A DNA stretch of 64,000 bases from Pseudomonas phage vB_PaeM_GXNNA8, in sequence record PV400810.1, one strand, 5' to 3'. Below, piece by piece: positions 1,341 to 60,357 of this stretch (its first letter is position 1; every line of letters starts with the position of its first letter). Made by a program: the position numbers and the translations under genes. Below the pieces are notes generated by a model. The model saw nothing but the letters and a program-made list of their open reading frames with translations. It searched no databases and was not told the origin of the DNA.

Positions 1341-4300
1341 TTATGCTGTTCTGCGTTGTTGCAGTAGGCGTTTGTTGCGTTCCACTTTAGCGTTCTCCAA
1401 CAGCACGTCAATGGTCATCATGCGATTCTGTTCCGGAGGCAACATCTTGGCTAACTTCCGAATCTCCACCTCTAGACGAAGTGCTAAGATATTGTCCTGG
1501 GTGCTCATCAGTTCTTCAGTTAGGCTGTGAACCTTACTCCGGACTTTATCGATGAGTTGAACCACGTACGGCTCATACTCGGTTCGTCCTTGGTTCTGGG
1601 CAGAGTTCAGTAAGTTGCGGGTGTCCGTTAGGGCAATCCCCGGAGGGATCCCGTACAAGGACTTGTTCTCCCCGAGCTTAATGAACCAGTAGCTCAGTAG
1701 CCACGCAATGACCAAGTCATCGTGCTGCTTCGCATCGTGGTCGATTCGATCCCCCTTGAGTTTCAGGTTGATCAATTCATCCGCGAGCTTCGCATAACAG
1801 AGGCCGTACCCGGTATTCCCAACCGCCTCTTGGATGAGGCCGTACAGGACGTCCCGACTGGTCTTGGTCGTTACGAACCCGAAGTATTGTTTATACTTCA
1901 GGTAGAACGCTTTATTCCGGTAAGCAAATTTGGTGTTCTGGACTTCCTCAAACTCCTTAGCGTTATTGACGGTGTCTTGGTAGATTTGGTTAAAGACCCG
2001 TTTAAAGGGGTCCATGCCCTTAGCCGGCAGCATAATCAACAGACTGTCGATCATGTGATGCGCGTAGTTACGCTCAATGATCAAGGTGCTGTTCTGAATC
2101 ACGTCCAGCAAATCCACAACAATGGCTGTGACATCATCCAAGAAGGTTAAGGGATATCGTCCCACCCCAATGACCTTACCCGTCTTCATACTGCGAATCA
2201 CAATGGTGCAGGCATCCTTGTTAATGGCTGAGGACGTATCCACACCAATCAGGAAATGGTCATTGTACTCCTTCTTTGCCATCTCCAACAATTCCTGTTG
2301 GGTCACAAAGAAGTCCACGTACAGGTTACAGTCCCGATATTCCTTACTCCACACCACGTCCCGCTTCATGTTGTTAATGGCTTCCCGGGTCACATCGTCA
2401 AACAACCGATTCTCCCCATCTTCCACCCACATGAGCAATAAGTCGATCTTGGCTTTCGCCAAACTCAATCCTAGCAGGTCAATGGTTTCCCGCACCCAGG
2501 CTTTGTCCTTACCCAGTTGAAGGTAATTGTACACCATGGAGACTGACGGAGAGGTTGTCTTCGTAGGGGAAGCCCTGAGTAACATCTGCCTCAAGTGACT
2601 CTCACTGAAGCAATCAAAGAACTTCTCCCGCCACTCCGTTGCACTCATGAGTTTATTGAACATAAACTCCCCGCTGGGATGGAGCGTGGTATTGGGGGTC
2701 GTAATGTGCGTAATCCCATACGGCAACCCCTGCTCTCTGCACAACGCCATTTCCGTTAGCGAGGACGGGGAACACCCGTCAATGATGGTGTCGATGAACC
2801 GAATATACCCGGACTCATCGTAGTTGGTAGTCCCTACCCGTAACCCCCGACCGAGATCCCCTGCTGCATCCTGACTGATCTGAGGAACGTTAATGTACAG
2901 CGTATTAACGTTATCTTCCCCAAAGGCCTTGTAGGTCAGACTGGTACCAGCATCCTTGTCCTTGTAGGTCGAGTTAATCAAATACGAGGGAATTGAACTC
3001 CGAATCTGTTTAATAGCCGCAATGAACTGAGCTCGGTTATCCGACTTCAAGGTAATCAAGTGGCTGGTATACCCCCGCCCCATGATGTACGTTAACCAGA
3101 AGTCAATCACCTGAACCGATACCGTGTTGTGGGTCACAATGAAGTCATCGGTCAAATACAACTGTTCACTGTTATCGACTTCAATACAGGTACAATCGTC
3201 ATCCCCTACGAAAGTCACCCGCTCGATCAGCAACCGATTATCAAAGACGACATTCTCTTCCCTGAACTTGAACGGAGGTACCTCTTCCGGTAGGGTAATC
3301 TCTACTCCGTTCTTGGTGACTTTACCGGTTCCACCTAGACTACGGGCTAAATACGCCAGTTGACCTCCTAGGACGCGATTTAAGGCTATAAAGACCTTAC
3401 CCCTACCAACCTTACCCCTAACGTCTAAAAACGCCTGTAAGAGGTCTCTCCGGGCGTTTAAAGGGGCTTCTAGGTATTGATCCGGTAAACCGTGTTCCCT
3501 GTTGAATAAATAAGGTTGGTTATCAGTCCGTTCTAAGCAACTGTTAGCCACTCCCTGAATAACTGTTACCCCCCGAGGGAGATGATCAACTACGTACTGT
3601 TTAACCGCATCCGTACGCGTGGGGATAATAACCTTACCGTCTTGATCTTGTCCGCAATAGATCAACCCGAGAACGTACGGGTCAATAGGTAGGTCCTGTT
3701 CACTCCCGGGTACCGGAGCCGGTAACGGCAATTGAAGTTTAACCTTCTTCTTCAACAGGTTAATGACATCAACGGTCGAATAGTCATTCCAGAGTGCACG
3801 TCCATTGAGGCAGTTGGAATAATCCTTCAAGGTCCACAGATGTTCAGTCCCTACGTCTGTAGCTCGTCCGTCACTGGTAATGACGCGATACAACCGGCGT
3901 TTACCCTGGGGATGAATACCAATCACCTGACACGGCTTCCCGGAACGGTCCAGGACTTGATCCCCCACCCGTAGGTGTTCGATCCGTTTCCAAGTATCCT
4001 GAGGGGTAATAGTCTTCAGGGTATCCTTAGGTACAATACGGACCTTAGCACTGTTACGCTGCTGCTTACCCTGTTGCCGCGGCATGATCATGTAGGTGGT
4101 AATGTGATTCAAATACGACCAAATAAAGCTGATATTCCCCCGGTTCGCTAAGAAGGGCTGATTCGGCTTTAACCGACAGACTTCCCGTAGGAAGTACCAA
4201 AAGTTACTCCGACACTCCTCCAGGACCCACACCTGTTGCTCAGGAGTGAGGTTAGGATCAAAGGGATCCACTCCTTTCAACAGGGGATTGTTCAATTGGA

Positions 4301-56338: not shown

Positions 56339-57505
56339 TTATTTAACTCGACGAATCGAGCCGATCGAGTATCCGTCACTGAGGTCAGCAGGCACCACGT
56401 AGTGATACGGACGGATGACTTCCGTGTGGTTCAAATCCATCAGGAAACCCGTCAGGATATCAACAAAACTCTCCGTGTACCGATTAAGTACGCACTCAAT
56501 AAAGTCAACCGATTCATCCGTGATCTTAACCGGCTCACTTCCATCCAGTGGATAACTCCACACGAACCAACTGTTCACATCCAACCCGAAGGGAACGTCT
56601 GTGGTGGCTTTATAGGCGTACAAGCGCTCCAGGATCTCGTTAGCCGCCTTATCCAACCATTCCTTACCATGCACACTGTTGAAAGGATAAATGCGTTTAC
56701 TGAAGTGACTGGCAGCAAATAGAAGGGTGCGGACTTCCTGCTCGAAGAGTGCTTTACCCGCGTCGGTCAGGTTCGCATGCTTGCGGTAATATTGAATCTG
56801 GCGGTTCACTTGATGTTCCAGTTCACCGATAGACTTAATAAGGTCCTTAATGTCCTGACGGTCATCGGGGTTATCGATCTCCAACGTTTCCCCTTCTCCG
56901 AGGGTAATCCCTTCTTTAGGGACTTCAGGGTAGACTTTATCAAACCGAACCGTAAAGTAAGAAAGGTCGTCTTTCTTGGTTTTGAACGTGAGGTAGAGGT
57001 CGTGGTCACGTTTACCTACCCATTCAACCAAATGGTTGCTTTTCTTGGTGATAACATCCACTGCATGACGGAGTTTATTGGAGAGTTTAATCACCAGTTT
57101 ATCCGTGGTTTTCAGATCATCTTGAAGCACATCATCAGCGGGGTGTTTAGCCGCGACCTGTAACCAACTACTGGGGAACTCTATAGAGACCCTCCCCATA
57201 CCCCCTACGATCTCTTCTGGAATGGTGAAGATTTCGTCATTGAAGAGGTATTGGGTCCACTTCTCGTTCAGTCGGAACGTGAGGGTACCGTTGTCACGGG
57301 TATACCGCACGTAGGCTTCTTCTTTACCTTCTTTATTGAGGGTAAAGAAGTAATGGATCTCGACATCCCCGAGGGTCAGCACATCTCGATATTCCGTTTC
57401 CCCTTCTACCCGTTGGCCTACCTCAACCAATTCTCCACCCCACAGGTGGTCGTATAGACGAGCCAGGTTGTTATAGCCCACGGATCCTACTTCTACTTGA
57501 CGCAT
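56339..57505 (-). CDS. hypothetical protein (388 aa; ATG at 57505 preferred over the TTG at 57535)
   Basis: AAGAAGGGG RBS before the ATG at 57505. Confidence 0.5.
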   Translation of the reverse strand: MRQVEVGSVGYNNLARLYDHLWGGELVEVGQRVEGETEYRDVLTLGDVEIHYFFTLNKEGKEEAYVRYTRDNGTLTFRLNEKWTQYLFNDEIFTIPEEIVGGMGRVSIEFPSSWLQVAAKHPADDVLQDDLKTTDKLVIKLSNKLRHAVDVITKKSNHLVEWVGKRDHDLYLTFKTKKDDLSYFTVRFDKVYPEVPKEGITLGEGETLEIDNPDDRQDIKDLIKSIGELEHQVNRQIQYYRKHANLTDAGKALFEQEVRTLLFAASHFSKRIYPFNSVHGKEWLDKAANEILERLYAYKATTDVPFGLDVNSWFVWSYPLDGSEPVKITDESVDFIECVLNRYTESFVDILTGFLMDLNHTEVIRPYHYVVPADLSDGYSIGSIRRVK

Positions 57506-57534
57506 TTTAAACCCCTTCTTTAAGGACGACTTCA

Positions 57535-60357
57535 ATGTTAGGACTGTTTTCAGTTAAGATCAAACAAACGGGAGACTACGTACACATTACGGGTGTGTCC
57601 TATTACGATTTAGCCAAAGACATTGAGAAGTTCTACAGCACTTCTCTCTTAACGAAACATCAGATTCGACGCGAATCCTGGGACACCATTAAGGTGCATA
57701 ACTTCTTCCTGGTAGAATTGCACCACATTGTGGGGGAACTCCTCAAAATACGGAACCTTCGTACCCGCAGACGAGCGTTGAGTGAACTGAAGGAACTCAT
57801 TGAAACCGAGACCTGGATTAAAGATACGGTTAATCCGGGAGGTAAACCTTTTGATCTTAAGAAACTGAATCAATTTAATACGGTTCCTTTTCCTCAGCAG
57901 TTGGACTTCCTTCAGCAATACCCGATCATTGTGAACAGTTATCACTTGAAAGGGATGCTGCTGGATGCTAAACCAGGTTCAGGGAAAGCCATGCCACTCT
58001 CAACTCGGGTTAAGGTCCCGAATGGGTGGAAAGCCTTGGGTGACCTAAAGGTCAAGGATATCGTAGTGACCCCTGGAGGCGATACCGCGTGTGTGGAGAG
58101 TATTTACCCCCAGGGGATCACGGAAGTTTATCGCTTCTATTTCGAAGACGGTAGAACGGCTGACTCTCATCCGTATCATTTGTGGAAAACCACGGTGAAT
58201 GGGATCGATGAAATCTTAACCACGTTGGAAGTACTCCATAAAGCCCGTAAAGAGGATGTGTACTTCCCCTTAGTGGGTGAGATCAATGGATGCAACCCCC
58301 ATTGCGATACGTCTTCTGAAGTCGCTGCAAGGGAGCTGGTCAATACCGACGTTGTAATAGGGGACAACGTATTGGAGCTCCCGTATCGGGATCGCTTTAA
58401 TATAGTCACATCGGTGATTGAACACGTGGGGTGTTTAATCAGTGAATCCGTCTTATCCGCGTATCACGAGAACCGGATTGGGATGGAGAACTTCCGTCGG
58501 TTGATGTGGTCCATTGGAGGAACAGCTACGGAGCCGGTGTTGGTTAACGGTTTGTATAAGGTTGACTTTAAGCACCGAGACGTCGGCAAGATGATGACTG
58601 GGTTAATTGGAGACAATCCCCGTATTCAAGGAATGTATAACTTCTCCCAGTATGAAGACCTGCAACTGAAGCTGGCGTACTGGGAGAAAGTGGAGAATCA
58701 AGAGACTTGCTGCATTGCCTTGGATAATGACGAGAAGCTGTATGTGGTGGATGACTACATCGTGACCCACAATACCTTTACGTCCTTGGCGTGGTCTCAA
58801 TTGATCAATACGGCTCCGACGGTTGTCTTTTGCCCTATGAACATTGTGGATAAAGTCTGGGTAGAACAACCCCTCCAGCACTTTAAGGTTCCACCCCGTA
58901 TCTGGACCAGTATCAGCGGTAAGGTCTTAGAAGAAGGGTATGACTTCTACATCGTCCATTACGATTACATGACCAGTGGTATGGGGAAATACTTGGAGAA
59001 CTTCCTCATTACGCTGAGTAAGAAGCATAAAGGCGCTTTGAAGATGATTCTGGATGAATCCCAGAACTTCAATGACCCTAAAGCAGCCCGTACACGGAAG
59101 TTGATCGAATGGTGCGACATGGAACTGTTCGGGCATCACCTTCCGATGTCCGGGACCCCGCTAAAGGCTCAGGGGAGTGAGATCTTCCCAACGACCTGTA
59201 TGATCGATCCCTACTTCGATAAGAAGGCTCGGGAGTTCTTTATGGCGTCCTATGGTCGTAACCGTCCCTCGTTAATGGATTTACTGAGCCGACGTATCGG
59301 ACGTATGAAGTTTACGATCCCTGAACTGGTGGGATTGGGTGATCCTCCTCCTATGGAACTGGTTAAGGTGAAGATCCCGAATTCAGATCAATACACCTTG
59401 GATGCTATTCGCCTCCAAATGCAGATTTACATTGGAGAACGGATTGCGTTCTATACGAAGCATATGCCGAGCTTCCTGGAATTCTACAACGATGTTCTGA
59501 CGTCGTATGAATTGTCTATCCAGGGGAATGCTAAAGCGGTTGAGAATCTGGTGAAGTACAAACAGATTGTTCACCGGTTCAGAACCCGGGGGTACAACAG
59601 TTTTACGGATAACCAAGACAGTCAGTTCTGTAAGCGGGTGGAAGAAGACATCGAGAAGGGCCTTAAAGGGACCGCCCTGAAGGATTTCAGGAACATTAAG
59701 TCCGCGGTTAAGTACTTGGGTCTAAAACTGCGTGGAGAGGCCTTAGGGAACGTTTTAGGACGAGCCCGTATTAACGCTATTAAGGACACCATTGCGCACG
59801 CAGGACTCCCTGAGCTCATCGATAACGTGGAGAAGAAGACCCTGATCTTTACCTCCTACGTGGATGCCCTTAAACTCTGTGAGGAATACCTCACGAAGGT
59901 CGGGTATCCGAATGTGACAGTATACGGTGAAAACAGCGCCGAACGAGACGCCAATATCAAACGCTTTGAGAAAGACCCCACTCTCCGTGCGTTGATTGCG
60001 ATCTTTGATTCCCTGAAGGAAGGGTATCCCTTGATTATGGCGAACCTGACCATTCTGTTGAATGCGCCTTTCCGAGAGTATGAAGTGAAACAGGTCCAAG
60101 CCCGTACCTGGCGTACCGGTCAGGATGCTCCCTGTTACTTTAAACTCTTGGATATGGACACCGGGGATAAACTCAACATTATGACCCGCAGTATTAACAT
60201 CATGGAATGGTCTAAGGAACAAGTGGACATTCTCATGAGTAAAGAACAGGGTCATGAGTTGTTGGGTAATATCACCGGCCAAGAAATGTTTGATATGGGG
60301 GATGAACCTGAAACCCATTCTCTGTATACCTCCCGGAGTGTTCTTTCACTCTTTTAA
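57535..60357 (+). CDS. SNF2/DEAD-like superfamily II helicase, intein-containing precursor (940 aa)
   Basis: Walker A KPGSGK-[intein]-T; motif II ILDESQNF; motif III LPMSGTPL; C-terminal helicase motifs LIFTSY, LIMANLT, QVQARTWRTGQDAP. Confidence 0.8.
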   Translation: MLGLFSVKIKQTGDYVHITGVSYYDLAKDIEKFYSTSLLTKHQIRRESWDTIKVHNFFLVELHHIVGELLKIRNLRTRRRALSELKELIETETWIKDTVNPGGKPFDLKKLNQFNTVPFPQQLDFLQQYPIIVNSYHLKGMLLDAKPGSGKAMPLSTRVKVPNGWKALGDLKVKDIVVTPGGDTACVESIYPQGITEVYRFYFEDGRTADSHPYHLWKTTVNGIDEILTTLEVLHKARKEDVYFPLVGEINGCNPHCDTSSEVAARELVNTDVVIGDNVLELPYRDRFNIVTSVIEHVGCLISESVLSAYHENRIGMENFRRLMWSIGGTATEPVLVNGLYKVDFKHRDVGKMMTGLIGDNPRIQGMYNFSQYEDLQLKLAYWEKVENQETCCIALDNDEKLYVVDDYIVTHNTFTSLAWSQLINTAPTVVFCPMNIVDKVWVEQPLQHFKVPPRIWTSISGKVLEEGYDFYIVHYDYMTSGMGKYLENFLITLSKKHKGALKMILDESQNFNDPKAARTRKLIEWCDMELFGHHLPMSGTPLKAQGSEIFPTTCMIDPYFDKKAREFFMASYGRNRPSLMDLLSRRIGRMKFTIPELVGLGDPPPMELVKVKIPNSDQYTLDAIRLQMQIYIGERIAFYTKHMPSFLEFYNDVLTSYELSIQGNAKAVENLVKYKQIVHRFRTRGYNSFTDNQDSQFCKRVEEDIEKGLKGTALKDFRNIKSAVKYLGLKLRGEALGNVLGRARINAIKDTIAHAGLPELIDNVEKKTLIFTSYVDALKLCEEYLTKVGYPNVTVYGENSAERDANIKRFEKDPTLRALIAIFDSLKEGYPLIMANLTILLNAPFREYEVKQVQARTWRTGQDAPCYFKLLDMDTGDKLNIMTRSINIMEWSKEQVDILMSKEQGHELLGNITGQEMFDMGDEPETHSLYTSRSVLSLF
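57988..58773 (+). mobile_element. intein (262 aa) in the helicase P-loop (GK|T), probable class 3 (Ala1, WCT-type), paralogous to the TerL intein
   Basis: AMPLSTRVKVPNGWKALGDLKVKDIVV (block A with Ala1), HPYHLW (block B Trp), QETCCIALD (block F Cys), DDYIVTHN|T (block G). Confidence 0.7.

Follow-up and report, generated by a model that had tools for sequence, protein, structure and literature searches.

Why does a phage helicase carry 262 additional residues in the middle of its ATP-binding loop, and where did those residues come from? The question is raised by a 64,000-nucleotide stretch of Pseudomonas phage vB_PaeM_GXNNA8 (PV400810.1; this whole stretch is hereafter the window), in which the gene for a superfamily 2 (SF2) helicase, the orthologue of gp166 of Pseudomonas phage EL, is interrupted within its Walker A motif. 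A second insert lies in the large terminase subunit (TerL) encoded in the same window, and the initial annotation, made from the letters of the sequence, had read the two as paralogous inteins that suggest movement between P-loop sites. The analysis confirms that the helicase is interrupted by a class 3 intein, which lies at the Lys/Thr bond of its P-loop. We also consider it very likely that this intein can splice and that EL-like jumbo phages have carried it in their helicase for a long time.

A class 3 intein in the P-loop of the helicase

The insert separates Lys151 from the Thr of the Walker A motif, a position that we write GSGK/T, the slash marking the interrupted bond. Its flanks read ...LLDAKPGSGK upstream and TFTSLAW downstream, and its removal leaves a canonical Walker A motif, GSGKT. 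Re-checking returned exactly the coordinates that the initial annotation had given for the insert (57988-58773, within a helicase of 940 residues), as well as its length of 262 residues and its end at YIVTHN/T. Orthologues without the insert read through the bond, and intein-free helicases carry an unbroken ...DAKPGSGKT... at this place. The gene as a whole is 97.5-98.5% identical in nucleotide sequence to that of Pseudomonas phage EL and six relatives, and the window belongs to an EL-type (Elvirus) genome.

The continuity of the host sequence across the site is visible on a much wider scale. When the 678-residue helicase, spliced in silico, was compared by tblastn with 50,697 phage records, 205 records matched, mostly in one unbroken piece; the helicase of Klebsiella phage Miami, for example, aligns to the spliced sequence in a single piece at 44% identity. 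A metagenome scan with an alignment of the C-extein gave 32 loci, of which 19 have an insert, 12 have none and one could not be scored. The 19 loci with an insert (C-extein identity 58-74%) carry a homologous one at the same K/T bond, ending ...VTHN/T, and the 12 without (C-extein identity 26-50%) are uninterrupted, as in GLLLDAKPGSGK/TVSSLMWT. Among 80 helicase orthologues from IMG/VR, 28 have an insert at this K/T bond and 49 have none. The insert, in other words, keeps the reading frame, and in the orthologues that lack it the host sequence runs on across its site, as is required of an intein.

Class 3 inteins are defined by a Trp-Cys-Thr (WCT) signature at set positions and by their lack of an N-terminal nucleophile (PMC2807308, PMC5050341). 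The helicase insert has no Cys, Ser or Thr at position 1, and its Trp66, Cys242 and Thr260 occupy B:12, F:4 and G:5. It also shows the more general marks of an intein, namely a Hint fold, blocks A, B, F and G, and a C-terminal His261-Asn262 followed by Thr+1. A profile built from the insert and its two closest database relatives matched only inteins in the PDB (E values from 1.4e-11 to 4.5e-7), among them gp41-1 (6riz, 1.4e-11), Msm DnaB-1 (6bs8, 4.7e-10) and the M. chimaera intein (6rix). Ala1, His64-x-Trp66, Cys242 and Thr260-His261-Asn262/Thr align column for column with 6bs8 and 6rix; the VTHN of the helicase intein pairs with the PTHN of 6bs8, and the Cys of ET-C-C-IALD with the Cys of VRCVEVD. 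Trp66 and Cys242 further coincide with F65W and D107C, the substitutions engineered into gp41-1 (6riz) to mimic class 3. Across 22 relatives Trp66 is invariant and Cys242 nearly invariant, and the signature residues are all invariant or nearly so.

The predicted structure agrees. An AlphaFold2 model of the intein, made with 24 sequences, has a mean predicted local distance difference test (pLDDT) value of 95.2 and a predicted template modelling (pTM) score of 0.91. In a Foldseek search of the PDB its best matches were PI-SceI (E 8.7e-9, query-normalised TM-score (TMq) 0.69) and the TliVMA intein, followed by class 3 DnaB mini-inteins with a target-normalised TM-score (TMt) of about 0.8. Thirty-three intein chains matched at E<=1e-3, and the weaker matches were other Hint-fold proteins (bacterial intein-like and Hedgehog domains). 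The call of a class 3-type intein is thus borne out by the WCT signature, the absent N-terminal nucleophile, the profile alignment with PDB inteins and the fold. The features on which it rests are collected in Table 1.

Table 1. Features of the helicase and TerL inteins and their host genes in the window, with the intein-only loci of related phages
Feature	Position	Strand	Remarks
Helicase precursor gene, EL gp166 orthologue, SF2 helicase, 940 residues	57535..60357	+	Open reading frame
N-extein, residues 1-151; ends ...LLDAKPGSGK, the first half of Walker A	57535..57987	+	
Class 3 intein, 262 residues, AMPLSTRV...YIVTHN, residues 152-413	57988..58773	+	
Block A, AMPLSTRVKVPNG; Ala1, no N-terminal nucleophile	57988..58026	+	Aligned from position 1 with Ala1 of Msm DnaB-1 (6bs8)
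Block B, GRTADSHPYHLW; His64 at B:10, Trp66 at B:12	58150..58185	+	HLW on HQW of 6bs8 and on F65W of gp41-1 (6riz)
Central domain, residues 70-225, LAGLIDADG homing endonuclease remnant	58195..58662	+	Second helix, YRDRFNIVTSVIEHVGC, at 58384-58434, without catalytic Asp
Block F, ETCCIALDNDEKLYVV; Cys242 (58711-58713), the F:4 nucleophile	58702..58749	+	On the Cys of VRCVEVD (6bs8) and on D107C (6riz)
Block G, DDYIVTHN; Thr260 at G:5, His261, C-terminal Asn262	58750..58773	+	
C-extein; Thr+1 at 58774-58776 completes GSGKT	58774..60357	+	DESQ Walker B, SGTPLK motif, Helicase_C lobe
TerL precursor gene (comparator), 1088 residues	1341..4607	-	Terminase large subunit in RefSeq EL
TerL class 3 intein, 313 residues, QQRNSAKV...FIVTHN, at PRQQGK/T	3126..4064	-	HLW, CTCIEVD, VTHN
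Extein-less loci L002, L003, L007, L008/L009/L057, L010, L012, L048, L049, L058, L059			

Predicted splicing, probable long residence and decay of the endonuclease

We propose that the precursor is translated with its Walker A motif split into GSGK and T, and that it would bind no ATP before splicing; because the P-loop is split, it would be an inactive ATPase. Both the splicing and the order of its events are inferred from the class 3 family. Cys242 at F:4 would attack the Lys151-Ala152 peptide bond to give a block-F branched thioester, after which the N-extein would move to Thr+1. Asn262 would then cyclise with the assistance of His261, releasing an intein of 30 kDa, and an O-to-N acyl shift would restore GSGKT in a helicase of 678 residues.

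The 155-residue central domain is modelled with pLDDT values of 82-98 and superposes on PI-SceI and on the TliVMA intein. In the inteins of the EL clade, which have 249-271 residues, the first LAGLIDADG motif has been deleted and the second reads ...NIVTSVIEHVGC..., with the catalytic Asp replaced; in the helicase intein this second motif reads ...SVIEHVGC, where Val precedes the Gly. An active endonuclease of this type has two helices, each with a catalytic Asp or Glu before the Gly, and the helicase intein does not. Full-length relatives that lie at sites of the same kind and have two motifs (...LMGVLLGDGS... and ...LLQGLLDTDGT...) occur both in a helicase orthologue (P0062, 355 residues) and in a TerL orthologue (P0113, 351 residues). 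These score 39 and 34 bits, respectively, against Pfam LAGLIDADG_3, and a scan of the EL-clade inteins with that family gave no match. Because its first motif is gone and the catalytic Asp of its second is replaced, the endonuclease of the helicase intein is very probably inactive, which would mean that mobility of the intein by homing has probably ended.

The distribution of the intein bears on its age. It is carried by all 19 metagenomic orthologues with a C-extein identity of at least 58% and by none of the 12 at or below 50%, and a neighbour-joining tree of the intein is congruent with the tree of the divergently transcribed neighbour gene. These data fit a single invasion, a long period of vertical inheritance and then decay of the endonuclease. 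We hypothesize that the one entry into the helicase site took place no later than in the ancestor shared by the EL-like clade and that the intein was from then on inherited with the gene; its LAGLIDADG endonuclease would later have lost its catalytic motifs, probably leaving the intein immobile by that route.

In IMG/VR, helicase alleles that are nearly identical in the residues around the site differ in the presence of the intein (L089, L092 and L093 versus L090 and L091; L097-L099 versus L100 and L101). Such a sporadic pattern of presence is typical of inteins, and it suggests an ongoing cycle of gain and loss by homing in the Vibrio-phage branch and others, unlike the fixed state in the EL clade. 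Double P-loop inteins, in tandem or separated by a few residues, also occur, in a TerL orthologue (P0031), in a helicase orthologue (P0020) and in P0047 and P0055. One TerL orthologue reads PRQ/intein/TGK/intein/T, and in one helicase orthologue a class 3 intein is directly followed by a Cys1 intein. Many of the top matches have a second intein elsewhere, for example at a ...LPG/PQPL... site.

Intein-only genes in related phages

The closest database relatives of the helicase intein are not helicases but intein open reading frames (ORFs) of 270-309 residues. These extein-less ORFs fall into seven types (P0001, P0002, P0016, P0017, P0018, P0049 and the L048 type), with an N-extein of 9-26 residues and a native C-extein of 0-4 residues; P0002 has a read-through tail of 16 residues after Thr+1. 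They occupy the syntenic helicase slot, beside homologues of gp167, gp168 and gp169, on contigs of up to 236 kb. A helicase scan of the EL-like contigs in IMG/VR recovered all 14 that have the intein within a helicase and none of the five with an extein-less ORF; two motif-pattern scans found no helicase on the extein-less contigs, of which the 236-kb contig was not read whole.

The loss of the exteins can be traced by comparing loci. By blastn, extein-less L003 and L011, which has the full helicase, are about 83% identical throughout and differ by two deletions, one of which removes N-extein codons 18-145, while the other begins at codon +2 of the C-extein and spares only its last few codons, leaving the ORF open from its native start. 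Between L002 and L021 the right end-point of the deletion differs, and the left end-point again lies just past the junction. Extein-less loci are interspersed among helicase-bearing ones both in the intein tree (bootstraps 72-100) and in the neighbour-gene tree (bootstraps 84-100 for two of the three groupings and 58 for the third), and extein-less ORFs therefore arose at least three to four times.

Synonymous divergence (dS) is saturated for most extein-less pairs, and we give the proportions of nonsynonymous and synonymous differences (pN and pS) in place of the ratio of nonsynonymous to synonymous rates (dN/dS). L010 and L058 have one and the same remnant structure; their proteins are 78% identical, with a pN of 0.154 and a pS, at saturated synonymous sites, of 0.83. 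In P0049 the block F Cys and the block G Thr-His are gone, but the ORF is still of full length. Because of the recurrent origins, the low pN relative to pS and the persistence of the P0049 ORF at full length despite its lost residues, we conclude that purifying selection maintains the intein-only gene.

Indirect support for splicing activity of the helicase intein comes from an intact and conserved catalytic set, from the strong conservation of both exteins (58-74% identical across the 19 intein-bearing metagenomic orthologues, Walker B and the SGTPLK motif included), from a low intein dN/dS (0.08-0.18) and from a GC content that matches that of the host gene (0.490 vs 0.478). The insert might instead be a dead relic, with splicing lost and the helicase either a pseudogene or working without an intact P-loop; the degenerate homing endonuclease, the lack of a Pfam match to the insert and the precedent of the Arthrobacter intein Arth_1007, a class 3 intein that is itself an inactive pseudogene (PMC3196547), could all be taken that way. 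However, Arth_1007 misses two catalytic positions and the EL helicase intein misses none. His B:10, Trp B:12, Cys F:4, Thr-His-Asn and Thr+1 are intact in 19 of 19 intein-bearing metagenomic helicases (16 of them aligned), and neither the conservation of the exteins nor the low dN/dS is what a pseudogene would lead one to expect, so that we regard a relic as highly improbable.

Several points nevertheless weigh against a splicing-competent, long-resident intein whose endonuclease has simply decayed. A Pfam scan of the helicase insert and its closest relatives gave no family above threshold and, because Pfam is silent on the insert, its identification rests on the profile, PDB and fold searches. 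Position B:7 is His61, where Thr or Ser is usual, with a conserved Ser60 one position before it. A literature search returned no experimental evidence of splicing for the helicase protein. The sporadic presence of the intein in more distant orthologues means that gain and loss by homing continue somewhere in the family, and the single entry into the helicase is a step that we infer. The central domain, with 7 invariant and about 17 nearly invariant positions in 22 relatives, is conserved far beyond what would be expected of a decaying endonuclease. Finally, the extein-less copies that purifying selection keeps in relatives suggest that the intein may be more than a passive passenger.

The last two points can be accommodated by a proposal that is compatible with the splicing set out above: the intein would splice but would also have been exapted by EL-like phages, so that the 30-kDa excision product with its conserved ex-endonuclease domain would have a function of its own. 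The intein would then have ceased to be only a selfish element, its Hint and ex-endonuclease domains now forming a protein of value to the phage in its own right, with both exteins deleted in at least three to four independent EL-like metagenomic lineages and the intein ORF, translated from the start codon of the helicase, kept by purifying selection. We advance this tentatively, as somewhat more likely to be wrong than right. It would account for the seven intein-only types at the syntenic slot, for contigs that yield no helicase match when all 14 with a helicase intein do, for the repeated origins in both trees, for two deletions in L003 that spare the reading frame and native start, for the low pN of the L010 and L058 pair against a saturated pS, for the full-length ORF of P0049 and for the strong conservation of the central domain. 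However, no function is predicted for the protein, the LAGLIDADG catalytic acid is absent, and conservation of the central domain could merely reflect what folding for splicing demands; a helicase elsewhere in the extein-less genomes is excluded by motif-pattern scans only, and the evidence comes from relatives whose inteins are 36-45% identical, not from phage EL. If the proposal is true, the excised intein of EL probably also has a post-splicing function, though any such role in phage EL is speculative. Of the present findings, those on the extein-less relatives most deserve to be followed up: an intein is expected to meet the opposite fate, and the repeated loss of a host protein whose intein is retained under selection would, if true, parallel in bacterial viruses the domestication of an intein known from yeast HO.

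The terminase intein and the comparison with known systems

Is the TerL intein, then, a close relative of the one in the helicase? Its junctions read PRQQGK/...THN/TVS, and its Gln1 offers no N-terminal nucleophile. Intein-free TerL orthologues align straight across K52/T53 of the junction probe, and intein-bearing ones break exactly there. The TerL intein carries two degenerate LAGLIDADG motifs, IDPYVLGLIYCGQDQDG and RRDLLQAFLDVRG. As a side observation, these motifs (…LIYCGQDQDG and …FLDVRG) look catalytically degenerate.

The two inteins do lie at the same structural site, after the Walker A Lys and with Thr at +1, and they are homologous, as had been claimed. BLASTP aligns them in two segments, one covering blocks A-B (42.4 bits, E 3e-9, 40% identity over 53 residues) and the other the C-terminal half of the endonuclease domain with blocks F and G (37.7 bits, E 1e-7, 27% over 152 residues), and phmmer scores the pair at 43-44 bits. 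The initial annotation had been prepared to give up the relationship if the likeness went no further than block G; since the two are significantly similar beyond that block, the relationship stands. The residue-for-residue match that it saw in block A does not: in the TerL intein 11 additional residues stand between ...VRIV and the conserved Trp, and the first residue is Gln, not Ala.

Homology at a shared site is a property of a very large group. A word-indexed protein search with the helicase intein returned two proteins only, and an exhaustive search with the helicase-intein profile returned 11,377 cluster representatives at E<=1e-3. The best 150 of these 11,377 representatives nearly all have the form GxGK/A-Q-P-L...V-T-H-N/T or S, in many different ATPases, and they contain 205 inteins, a set itself selected for similarity to the helicase intein. 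Within it, with the helicase intein as query, the TerL intein comes 184th of 204 (43 bits vs 90-230 bits for the others), and with the TerL intein as query the helicase intein comes 197th of 205 (44 bits vs 100-119 bits); the two are neither mutual nearest relatives nor an exclusive subfamily of the 205. The nearest relatives of the helicase intein lie in orthologous helicases, at this same bond, and the closest inteins of the helicase locus score 144-227 bits. The nearest relatives of the TerL intein are other TerL inteins, those of Shewanella phage FishSpeaker (39% identical) and of Erwinia phages Joad and RisingSun (36%), with E 1e-45. Nor is the presence of one tied to that of the other: RisingSun has the TerL intein and an intein-free helicase (L085), and SL2 has the helicase intein and an intein-free TerL.

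These results bear directly on whether one intein derived from the other by movement between P-loop sites within the phage lineage. The significant BLASTP and phmmer similarity agrees with such a derivation, as do the common class, the common K/T site and the LAGLIDADG-type domain of both, and a transfer of class 3 inteins from one ATPase to another, unrelated one was put forward for the DnaB-b and TerL1-c/e inteins, at 41-55% identity (PMC5050341). However, each of the two ranks near the bottom for the other in a set that had been chosen for likeness to the helicase intein, far closer relatives of each lie at the orthologous site in other phages, and their occurrence is uncoupled across relatives. 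The inteins are not paralogous in the close sense, and the inference from co-occurrence to movement between sites, in preference to independent acquisition, finds no support; this reading is largely refuted, and we give it next to no credence. Because of the low mutual ranks, the closer same-site relatives elsewhere and the uncoupled presence, the two look like independent residents, and the data point to their separate acquisition from one large, known P-loop class 3 pool, that of the A-x-P-L...V-T-H-N/T or S inteins found at the K/T bond in many unrelated ATPases. The TerL intein would be a distantly related member of that pool that arrived independently in the same genome. A third copy in the window was also considered; local tblastn shows only two, and the third match in the EL records is probably a split match to TerL.

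The inteins have left traces in the databases. The spliced helicase matches Helicase_C (35 bits) and ResIII (17 bits, below cutoff) in Pfam, with no match to an SNF2 N-lobe; its best PDB match is the SNF2-family protein SsoRad54 (E 1e-4), in the C-lobe only, and the C-extein alone matches PHROG 62, 'DNA helicase', with 243 bits. The jumbo-phage helicase has been described as Swi2/Snf2-type, possibly RapA-like, co-occurring with phage RNA polymerases (PMC7824862), and it is mainly on this literature that the label 'SNF2-family' rests. In RefSeq the helicase is PPEV_gp166, 'DarB-like antirestriction', a label also given to the helicases of SL2 and PhiPA3 and to the TerLs of Eowyn, N1M2 and Phrappuccino, and the GenBank record of EL (AJ697969; RefSeq NC_007623) names its TerL 'putative ATP-dependent DNA helicase'. 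PHROG 19299, 50, 510 and 15, which bear terminase, DnaC-like loader and primase names, match the bare intein (E 1e-8 to 1e-17); stretches of intein have thereby become part of PHROG profiles. These mislabels were probably caused by inteins.

EL gp166 and EL TerL are unrecognised intein precursors in GenBank and RefSeq, and the value of recognising them is mostly one of annotation. The predicted mature proteins have 678 residues (helicase) and 775 residues (TerL), and in both the ATP-binding loop would be made whole only by splicing, a point to bear in mind when these proteins are expressed or the proteomes of EL-like phages analysed. A full-text literature search for EL inteins returned no relevant prior description. 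The InBase registry presumably lists 'PhiEL Helicase' and 'PhiEL ORF11' inteins; if it does, the intein has already been catalogued. Next to the helicase gene lies the divergently transcribed gp167 homologue (56339-57535, minus strand), whose C-terminal part is conserved in the homologues at L008, L010, L011 and L013-L040 and whose N-terminal region is highly variable in length and sequence among EL-like phages (386 to more than 567 residues).

Class 3 inteins in the P-loops of unrelated phage ATPases have been known since 2009-2016, and the helicase intein is an unannotated case of them. Their occurrence in DnaB, RecG, SNF2 and phage TerL proteins, mostly in P-loops, was stated in 2009 (PMC2807308). 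A later study gave the K/T position the name of 'classic' P-loop insertion, considered the passage of class 3 inteins between DnaB and TerL, and proposed that phages play a part in spreading these inteins among unrelated ATPases (PMC5050341). The inter-protein pairs described there are 41-55% identical, whereas the two EL inteins are far more distant, at 27-40% over partial alignments. The mycobacteriophage TerL1-a inteins occupy the same site as the EL intein, after the invariant Walker A Lys and before the nucleophilic Thr, in other host proteins and other phage families than the EL helicase intein (PMC5050341). The founding class 3 intein, in DnaB of mycobacteriophage Bethlehem, differs in having Pro1, where the EL intein has Ala1, and an active-looking endonuclease that is toxic in E. 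coli, where that of EL is decayed; its native junction is VSQDQ/.../TKNTF and not the GxGK/T P-loop site (PMC2807308). With it, the Snf2 intein of Deinococcus radiodurans counts among the nearest known systems.

Structurally characterised relatives show the same mixture of shared and private features. Msm DnaB-1 (6bs8) and M. chimaera DnaB-1 (6rix) share with the helicase intein Ala1, His-x-Trp, Cys F:4, Thr-His-Asn and the Hint fold, and their hosts, too, are helicases. They are mini-inteins of 125-145 residues without an endonuclease domain, whereas the EL intein keeps its 155-residue ex-LAGLIDADG domain, and identity in structural alignment is only about 12-14%. Over the whole model the best matches are PI-SceI (1dfa) and TliVMA (7qsu), with TMq of 0.6-0.7 across the Hint fold and part of the LAGLIDADG domain; these belong to class 1 (Cys1) and have complete endonucleases with both motifs as well as additional regions that recognise DNA, whereas the EL intein has about half of such an endonuclease and no catalytic acid.

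The extein-less ORFs have two precedents. Yeast HO is an intein-derived stand-alone gene (bioRxiv 10.1101/2020.01.20.913210); HO and WHO retain an active endonuclease, whereas the phage ORFs are without the endonuclease catalytic motif (bioRxiv 10.1101/2020.01.20.913210). Arth_1007 of Arthrobacter FB24 is a class 3 intein with exteins of only 66 residues (PMC3196547). It is a single, catalytically dead pseudogene, whereas the extein-less ORFs of phages are recurrent, mostly keep their splicing residues and are under purifying selection.

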